Of a stretch of 64,000 nucleotides of DNA, positions 11,808 to 17,208 are shown piece after piece; position 1 is the first letter of the stretch, and every line of letters begins with the position of its first letter. Where the stretch lies: the NCBI RefSeq assembly GCF_003334355.1, contig NZ_QOWP01000009.1; one strand, 5' to 3'. The DNA is from Escherichia coli (GTDB lineage Bacteria; Pseudomonadota; Gammaproteobacteria; Enterobacterales; Enterobacteriaceae). A program made the translations under genes and the position numbers. The notes beneath the pieces are model-generated. The model had not been told where the DNA came from. It was given only the letters and a program-made list of their open reading frames with translations, and made no database searches.

Positions 11808-13299
<1,492 letters not shown>

Positions 13300-13325
13300 G
13301 CACTTTTGAATGGCGAGACAGAACT

Positions 13326-14204
13326 TTACTGACTCGCCGCAGCCAACTCTTCTTCTGACAGCCCGGTAAAGCGCATGATGTCTGCAAGAGGGACTCCGGA
13401 TTCAAGCATTATTTTGGCTATATGCAAGGCTTTGGATTGTTCCCCCTCCTGCCGCAATCTTTCCGCAATAGTCATTAAACTCTCCTTGTGTTTCGGTGAA
13501 CGTTCGGCAACGCCGTCGATAAAATCGTTAAAACGTACCGCATCGCCGGTTTGCAAGATGTAATTAAACAGCCCTTTGATTTGTCTGTCATTAGCGTATC
13601 CACTACTTAATAAGCAGGCCATTTGTTCTACCAGCCCCATCAGATCGCGTTGACGAATATGTTTTTGAATTAACTCCAGCAGCGCCATACGTCGGTGCTG
13701 CATGATTTCATCATCAGGCATGACGGTGACATCAATCAGCGGAAATGCGGAGGCATAAAGCTGCCTTGCCAGTTTGGGATCGGCGAAACAATCCAGCCAA
13801 CACAGCGAATAGGGATAGGGGCTTTCAATACCGTGGTAAAACAACAATGGCACCACCATCGGCAACGTTTTGTATCCGGCATCAAGGTGATTTTGCATTG
13901 CGGCAATAGCGTAACGCATCATGCGAAATGCGATCAGTTTGTTTGAGGTGCTTTGATGTTCAATCAGACAATAGATGTATCCTGGTCCTTGTTCTGTTTT
14001 CACCGACCACAGCACATCGGAATAGCTTTCACGCAGATCGTCATCAATAAAGCTGCTCGACTCCAGCTTGAGGGTTTTCATATCACAGAGCGCGTGAATG
14101 GGTGCCGGTAAATGAAACGCAAGAAAATCGCGTGCCGTCTCCGGTTGGCGTAAAAAGAGTTTGAACAGCGCATCGTGTGGGGTGGAACTCTGCTTTTTGC
14201 TCAT
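13326..14204 (-). CDS. rpnA: Recombination-promoting nuclease RpnA (YhgA-like, transposase-related PD-(D/E)XK family)
   Basis: 292 aa; translation matches the YhgA/Rpn family as I recall it; stands alone between bioH and feoC. Confidence 0.85.
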
Positions 14205-14349
14205 GGCGTTCCTTCACCTGTTGTTTGAATGCCGCGACTCTACGCGCCACTCCACACCTGTGCATTAGCCAGTTTTCATCCCTGCGAGACGCTTTCAGAG
14301 GAACTTACGTCGCGCTGCAAGAATTGCATTTTTATGGAAAGCCGCACGC

Positions 14350-14380
14350 AAAAAAGCCCGGATGCAGACGCATACCGGGC
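14350..14380 (-). terminator. Intrinsic terminator downstream of feoC
   Basis: Hairpin AGCCCGG-(13 nt loop)-CCGGGCT followed on the minus strand by TTTTTT. Confidence 0.7.
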
Positions 14381-14406
14381 TTTTCAAAACAGGCGATGGA
14401 GTATGG

Positions 14407-14643
14407 TTAACGCAGCGCCCACCACTCGCGCAGACAGGCTTTTCCTTCCGGGCAGCTTTTACAACTGCCGGAGAGGCAGCCGTCAGGTTCTTCCTGAATC
14501 CGCACGGCTTTGCCCATACTTTCCAGTTGTTGCAGCATGGCGTTAATCATTGGCTGCGGAGTGTGCAATGTCTGGCTTATCTGGGCCGCTTCCATACGGC
14601 CCCGTAACGCCAGCAAATCACGCACCTGAATAAGTGAAGCCAT
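14407..14643 (-). CDS. feoC: Ferrous iron transport protein C
   Basis: 78 aa from the ATG at 14641-14643 (ORF track starts 3 codons earlier); Cys cluster '[15 protein letters not shown]'; start overlaps the feoB stop (TAATG). Confidence 0.9.
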
Positions 14644-16980: not shown

Positions 16981-17208
16981 TTAACAGGAAACCGCTTCCA
17001 CTTCTAATAAGGCCAGATCTTTTTTGCGTAATACCAGGCTCACACGACGGGTTTCGATATGAATGGGGTCGCCGAGTGGAGCGACGCGCACCACATTAAA
17101 AGAGGAGCCAGGTAACATGCCAAGAGAAAGCAGTTTTTGGCGATATGCCGGGCTGATTTCACGGGAAAAGCCAGTGATTTTCCACGCAGTATCTGGAGTG
17201 TATTGCAT
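16981..17208 (-). CDS. feoA: Ferrous iron transport protein A
   Basis: 75 aa small ORF immediately upstream of feoB. Confidence 0.93.

Follow-up and report, generated by a model that had tools for sequence, protein, structure and literature searches.

The closest described system is the RpnA nuclease of Escherichia coli K-12, whose nuclease activity and need for residues D11, D63, E82 and Q84 were reported by Kingston et al. 2017 (PMC5350276). Zhong et al. (PNAS 2023, PMC10400941; commentary by Koonin, PMC10400984) described two products of the same reading frame: the full-length protein, RpnAL, and a small C-terminal protein, RpnAS, made from an internal start. Translation from the internal start was observed by Onc112 and retapamulin ribosome profiling and by SPA-tag immunoblot; chromosomal SPA tags reveal RpnS proteins, and SPA-tagged RpnAS was detected from its native locus. 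At this locus RpnAS, which has a transcript of its own, exceeds RpnAL in abundance, and RpnAL was not detected under the conditions of that paper. The chromosomal substitutions K240R+E241D+M244L led to the loss of RpnAS. RpnAL without RpnAS inhibits growth and RpnAS relieves the inhibition, for which its supply in trans is sufficient; RpnAS also blocks SOS induction and the cleavage of DNA by RpnAL in vitro. [quoted passage not shown] The structure of RpnAS, at 1.9 Å resolution, is a dimer of three-helix bundles that dimerise via the first helix, and RpnS–RpnL specificity is determined by how many four-residue repeats this helix contains. The same paper reports that the RpnL:RpnS ratio varies with the promoter used, which it leaves unexplained. 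For the site that is the subject of this work, the literature has thus established initiation at Met244, the antitoxin activity, the complex and the RpnAS structure.

The other members of the family, RpnB–E, the plasmid protein RpnP2 and the stand-alone RpnSs proteins (such as ypaA, which is rpnESs; DUF4351/PF14261), share a start unit composed of GGAG, a short spacer and ATGAC, and their small C-terminal helical domain begins with MT(I/L)A, like that of the RpnAS analysed here. These paralogues contain from one to several four-residue repeats and are 53–77 aa long, whereas the RpnAS of our window, by which we mean the whole 64,000-nucleotide stretch of E. coli DNA analysed, has none and is 49 aa long. 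In addition, ypaA follows rpnE as a gene of its own, while rpnAS is nested. Outside this family, McrB-S (in mcrB) and Cas11d (in cas10d) are likewise C-terminal fragments produced by in-frame internal initiation, which modulate or complement the full-length protein. They belong to different families and their short form is not the antitoxin of a toxic nuclease, so the analogy is one of mechanism only.

The internal start described below is the already published RpnAS start, and the main finding was already known (Zhong et al. 2023). It adds nothing beyond that paper, and its value is that of a positive control for the recognition of nested genes in raw sequence. What is added, in the form of hypotheses rather than discoveries, is the location of a candidate promoter, a census of the start site, the toxin-deleted rpnAS remnants and a downstream copy in a second allele family.

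The rpnA locus and its internal start

The rpnA (yhgA) gene occupies positions 13326–14204 of the window on the minus strand and, according to its open reading frame and profile matches, encodes the 292-aa RpnAL, a toxin of the PD-(D/E)XK DNA endonuclease type. Against the NCBIfam RpnA equivalog NF007361 (cut-off 583) the product reaches 694.8 bits and against the Rpn subfamily TIGR01784 161.6 bits, and the Pfam family PF04754 (Transposase_31, YhgA-like) spans residues 8–209 with E = 1.8e-91. Residues D11, D63, E82 and Q84 are all retained in the translation. The order feoC–rpnA–bioH is that of RefSeq E. coli genomes, where the gene at this place is annotated as rpnA. The window comes from another strain than K-12, and its rpnA presents a few base differences with respect to MG1655; residue 22 is E in the window and D in K-12. 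RpnAS is unchanged. Gene, position, Shine-Dalgarno sequence, spacer and ATG are therefore the same as in the K-12 RpnAL–RpnAS system, with an identical 49-residue small protein.

Regarding the surroundings, the neighbours feoABC, bioH and gntX are housekeeping genes and do not form a defence island. The genes rpnA (minus strand) and bioH (plus strand) are convergent, with 26 nt between their stop codons (13300–13325), where no terminator-like hairpin was reported; a terminator-like site lies at 14369–14356 (minus strand), between feoC and rpnA. No model of PADLOC-DB 2.0 matched RpnA or RpnAS, and searches of the whole window with Rfam (gathering thresholds) and ARAGORN gave no matches. The RefSeq K-12 record (NC_000913.3) contains only the full-length rpnA CDS, without an rpnAS feature, while mcrB-S is annotated in the same record. 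A nested gene that lacks annotation in RefSeq K-12 was thus recovered from the raw sequence alone.

Codons 240–244 of rpnA read AAG GAG AGT TTA ATG (K E S L M). The first two of them, K240 and E241, form the Shine-Dalgarno sequence AAGGAG at 13482–13487 on the minus strand, which precedes by 6 nt an ATG (13473–13475, minus strand) corresponding to Met244 and in frame with rpnA. The nested coding sequence, rpnAS, extends from Met244 to the shared stop codon (13326–13475, minus strand), and its assignment as the 49-aa antitoxin RpnAS is based on its translation and on identity with PDB entry 7TH0. The first-pass annotation, made from the letters of the DNA, had proposed this arrangement, and the hexamer, the 6-nt spacer, the in-frame ATG and Met244 lie, to the base, where it had placed them; the sequence that it quoted for the 49-aa product is also the one obtained. 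Its statement that Rpn genes encode small intragenic antitoxins is accurate and applies to exactly this site (PMC10400941). The published K240R+E241D+M244L mutant hits precisely the AAG GAG codons and the ATG, and it addresses therefore the same site. The calculated masses of 33.28 kDa for RpnAL and 5.37 kDa for RpnAS agree with the 33.3 and 5.4 kDa given in PMC10400941. In a PDB sequence search, chain A of 7TH0 (“Recombination-promoting nuclease RpnA”) was identical to the predicted product in 49 of 49 residues, which means that the three-helix bundle dimerising through its first helix is the structure of this very polypeptide.

The first-pass annotation had also held that so strong a site was unlikely to be accidental. 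The frequency of comparable sites was surveyed in 46 long, non-overlapping open reading frames of the window, comprising 18,598 codons and 438 internal in-frame ATGs. Only three of these ATGs have AAGGAG or AGGAGG 4–9 nt upstream. Two of the three, located at codons 24 and 30 of reading frames that had been called too long, are where pck and frlC truly begin, the resulting products of 540 and 276 aa matching their family profiles from end to end; the rpnA site is consequently the sole deep-internal pair of Shine-Dalgarno sequence and ATG in the reading frames surveyed. AAGGAG occurs five times in 55.8 kb of open reading frame sequence, and a rough estimate from these counts gives about 0.1–0.5 chance occurrences of a deep-internal site for each window. 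RNA accessibility around the start is predicted to be only moderately high, at the 82nd percentile within the gene, which is too weak to serve as evidence. The motif taken alone is thus suggestive, not decisive, and it is conservation, together with the published experiments, that settles its non-accidental nature. All three AAGGAG- or AGGAGG-plus-ATG pairs within the long reading frames of the window are genuine starts, which supports the use of strong internal Shine-Dalgarno–ATG pairs, together with synonymous-site conservation, for finding genes within genes.

Conservation of the start site and a candidate internal promoter

An AAGGAG that failed to be conserved in orthologues had been named beforehand as an observation that would speak against the internal start. 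This was assessed in three ways, among paralogues, among species and among E. coli genomes, and the outcome does not refute the interpretation. In an alignment of seven paralogous sequences (the window rpnA, K-12 rpnA–E and the stand-alone ypaA), GGAG and ATGAC are invariant in 7/7, compared with a mean column identity of 64%. The amino acid at codon 240 varies (K, G or R) with the G at the third position always kept, and Glu241 is always encoded by GAG. This pattern points to a constraint acting at the nucleotide level.

For the comparison among species, a collection of species-representative genomes was scanned with a single DNA pattern for RpnS residues 2–11, so that neither the ATG nor the Shine-Dalgarno sequence was selected for. 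The scan yielded 52 loci, from Citrobacter, Escherichia, Salmonella, Klebsiella, Kluyvera and Superficieibacter, plus five MAG loci (Deltaproteobacteria, Spirochaetales). An ATG is found directly upstream of the pattern in 49 of the 52 and one codon further up in the other three. The Shine-Dalgarno sequence is AAGGAG in 37 loci and AAGGA in 12, and the sole locus without one is a remnant in S. enterica arizonae, which has just 20 in-frame codons upstream. The in-frame upstream reading frame is of at least 244 codons in 34 of the 52 loci (exactly 247 in 28), and the internal start is therefore intragenic in these 34.

The third comparison covered 5426 complete E. coli genomes, searched by megablast with 41-nt queries centred on the 15-nt block of Shine-Dalgarno sequence, spacer and ATG, under conditions in which any change inside the block gives no match. 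The exact block of the window (AAGGAG-AGTTTA-ATG) was found in 4738 genomes, AAGGAG-AACTTA-ATG in 273 and AAGGAG-AGCTTA-ATG in 280; a broken Shine-Dalgarno sequence, AAGGTG, was found in 121, and 14 genomes were unaccounted for. Both elements are thus intact in at least 5291 of the 5426 genomes, 553 of which differ in the spacer only, counts that mirror a few clonal lineages and not many independent events. Apart from AAGGTG, no recurrent variant disrupts the Shine-Dalgarno sequence. By blastn, the region is present at 95% identity or more in every one of the 5426 genomes.

A candidate promoter for the small gene lies inside rpnA, on the minus strand. It consists of a putative -35 element, ATGACA (13586–13591), matching five of six consensus positions, and, at a distance of 17 nt, a putative -10 element, TTTAAT (13563–13568), formed by the Phe-Asn codons of the LFNY stretch. 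The pair matches the sigma-70 consensus at 10 of 12 positions with a 17-nt spacer, and it is one of two such sites in the 128 kb made up by both strands of the 64-kb window. The second one, TTGGCA ... TTTAAT (17095–17123, minus strand), is, by K-12 coordinates, inside feoA and upstream of feoB. Among 46 enterobacterial loci, the codon pair TTT-AAT of the -10 element is used in all 46, against a background in the same genes of 79% TTT and 60% AAT, and the -35 element ATGACA is kept in 44. The distance from the candidate promoter to the internal ATG is fixed at 93 nt across loci. Transcription is predicted to start near window position 13555, which would give a 5′ UTR of ~80 nt. Similar internal promoter-like sequences, ATGACA-17 nt-TT(T/A)AAT, are carried by rpnB, rpnD and rpnE.

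An internal transcription start has been described 650 bp into rpnB of E. coli O157:H7 EDL933 (PMC10469882), and dRNA-seq internal starts in all rpn genes are among the data cited in PMC10400941. The rpnA candidate is at the position equivalent to +650 of rpnB, and it fits the published internal starts; it was found only after the published rpnB start had directed attention to the region. We consider ATGACA-17 nt-TTTAAT the likely promoter of the short rpnAS mRNA, as judged from its sequence, its spacing and its conservation at synonymous positions. A strict sigma-70 scan of positions 13200–14450 gave no promoter. It misses TTTAAT because it demands an A at position 2 of the -10 element, where the candidate has T. 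A relaxed scan that maintained the same rule for this position gave only poor sites ~220 nt upstream.

Nuclease-deleted remnants and the role of RpnAS

Two deletions that remove nuclease sequence were found in E. coli. The ST131-type (JJ1886, L001:1501-2245; strain 23753, L009) is a frameshifting deletion of 437 nt, covering rpnA nt 78–514 (window 13691–14127), in which the nuclease core is lost. The remnant keeps the candidate promoter, AAGGAG, the ATG and an intact 49-aa rpnAS frame with one change (L39V). Coverage of the locus is below 80% in 764 of the 5426 genomes, most of which probably carry the ST131-type deletion. A megablast search with a junction-spanning query returned 595 records at 99% identity or more, a number that is indicative only, given that separate pieces were joined into one place. 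The ST73-type (Nissle 1917, CFT073, ATCC 25922; L007:550-1403) is a deletion of 254 nt, rpnA nt 31–284 (window 13921–14174); here the Shine-Dalgarno sequence is AAGGTG (changed at window 13484), the -35 element is ATGGCA (window 13588) and the rpnAS frame is still open. The two deletions are independent, both are frameshifting and both spare rpnAS.

The ST73-type pattern, seen in a single lineage, fits a decay of the expression signals after the loss of the toxin. With regard to the 121 AAGGTG genomes, which are the ST73-type ones and include the three strains just named, a nuclease-deleted rpnA pseudogene is present in all 40 records listed; among these the Shine-Dalgarno sequence is lost only where the toxin is gone, an anecdotal observation from one lineage, in the expected direction. 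That the ST131-type remnant, present in several hundred of the 5426 genomes, is not a recent relic but is maintained, as an orphan antitoxin against cognate Rpn nucleases that enter the cell or for some other function, is an unlikely reading. A further remnant was observed in Escherichia whittamii (L052:5700-6000), where 50 in-frame codons of rpnA precede an intact 49-aa rpnAS with AAGGAG-AGTTTA-ATG and alignment with rpnA ceases farther upstream, so that once again the small gene outlives the nuclease.

The explanation that we favour, with a probability of roughly 0.93 for the whole of it, is that of a gene within a gene, in which a toxic RpnAL and, by initiation at Met244 in the same frame, its antitoxin RpnAS are both encoded by rpnA. 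RpnAL (292 aa) is a non-specific PD-(D/E)XK DNA endonuclease, toxic if made alone. RpnAS (49 aa) initiates at Met244 using the AAGGAG six bases upstream, and most likely it is translated mainly from a separate short mRNA whose promoter is inside rpnA. The small protein, a three-helix bundle dimerising through its long first helix, binds the identical C-terminal domain of RpnAL, and DNA cleavage is prevented in the resulting 2:2 complex, RpnAS thus acting as a dominant-negative antitoxin. The specificity of RpnAS for its cognate RpnL depends on how many four-residue repeats the first helix carries. The sequence identity with the published protein and the conservation of the Shine-Dalgarno sequence and ATG among the paralogues, between species and within E. 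coli are contributed by the present work, and nothing in the analysis contradicts this explanation. Antiphage protection has been demonstrated for the plasmid homologue RpnP2 only, not for RpnA (PMC10400941), and a similar role for chromosomal rpnA may be inferred solely by analogy with RpnP2.

Among the alternatives, the one that survives best accepts that RpnAS is made and places its main chromosomal role elsewhere than in the neutralisation of its own toxin, either as a DNA-binding regulator of the helix-turn-helix type or as a stand-alone protein that shields against cognate Rpn nucleases entering the cell. In HHpred, RpnS is related to helix-turn-helix motifs (PMC10400941), PGAP names some of the remnants “Rpn/YhgA-type helix-turn-helix domain-containing protein”, RpnAL is undetectable under laboratory conditions (PMC10400941), and the ST131-type genomes retain promoter candidate, Shine-Dalgarno sequence, ATG and the intact 49-aa frame after having lost the nuclease. 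Against these points, direct binding and inhibition of RpnAL by RpnAS have been demonstrated (PMC10400941), the retention in ST131 is a single clonal event that may simply be recent, and the ST73-type remnant has both its -35 element and its Shine-Dalgarno sequence mutated, as expected if the small gene were dispensable after the loss of the toxin. We regard such a different main role as quite unlikely, and own-toxin neutralisation by the nested antitoxin as the preferred reading.

Internal Shine-Dalgarno-like hexamers have been proposed to slow elongating ribosomes. Applied to rpnA, this general proposal would make the internal AAGGAG mainly a pause site for ribosomes elongating RpnAL, tuning the synthesis or folding of the toxin, with the small product as a minor by-product; the unexplained promoter-dependent RpnL:RpnS ratio (PMC10400941) would be in line with it. 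A minor by-product is, however, at odds with the excess of RpnAS over RpnAL at the native locus, with its own transcript and with the sufficiency of RpnAS in trans for inhibition (PMC10400941). Furthermore, the downstream ATG is conserved as well as the Shine-Dalgarno sequence, and stand-alone copies such as ypaA keep the unit of both without an upstream reading frame. Pausing as the main function is even less probable than a different role of the small protein.

That AAGGAG and ATG are a mere by-product of the coding of Lys-Glu-Ser-Leu-Met, unused for initiation, is scarcely credible: finding one deep-internal site in a 64-kb window would be no great surprise and the predicted accessibility is only moderate, but synonymous positions are conserved across paralogues and species, the small protein disappears in the published K240R+E241D+M244L mutant and a crystal structure of the 49-residue product exists (PMC10400941, 7TH0). 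Proteolytic processing as the source of RpnAS was rejected, since mutation of the ribosome-binding site and ATG abolishes RpnAS (PMC10400941).

Repeat variation and a downstream rpnAS-like copy

The part of the first helix of RpnAS that harbours insertions of four-residue repeats in other alleles and in the paralogues corresponds to codons G254–H261 (13422–13445, minus strand), the published insertion point being H261 of RpnAL (PMC10400941). In the 52 loci of the species scan, most of the complete small products have lengths on a four-residue ladder of 49, 53, 57, 61, 65, 69, 73 and 77, which reproduces the published tetrad-repeat variation. The 49-aa RpnAS of the window and of K-12 is the minimal, repeat-free form.

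A second family of rpnAS alleles exists in E. coli (L062:914-1090, L066:970-1134, L068). Its product is 54 aa long, with an extra FQKG after G254 and a diverged sequence, and the N-terminal nuclease domain that precedes it is nearly identical. The two spacer variants of the sequenced 54-aa examples occur in at least 553 genomes. In these loci, an extra ~205 nt between rpnA and bioH (L062:1090-1290) contains a further rpnAS-like copy, provided with an AAAGGA and an ATG of its own and consisting of a 35-aa open reading frame ended by a GAA→TAA change. Downstream rpnSs copies have been described for rpnC and rpnE, not for rpnA (PMC10400941).

The downstream copy and the window rpnAS are almost identical in their 3′ halves, and for this reason the window allele, which is of the K-12 type, may have arisen by fusion of the nuclease domain to such a copy. 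The resemblance suggests a fusion of the kind mentioned in general terms in PMC10400941, a separate reading to which we give odds as low as those of a maintained orphan gene in the ST131-type genomes.

A split member of the family is found on the E. coli plasmid pKTa005_5 (47.9 kb; L008:1520-2758), where a 333-nt CDS and a pseudogene without its N-terminus are located beside parM. The internal-start region of this plasmid gene is 91% identical to that of the window over 35 nt.
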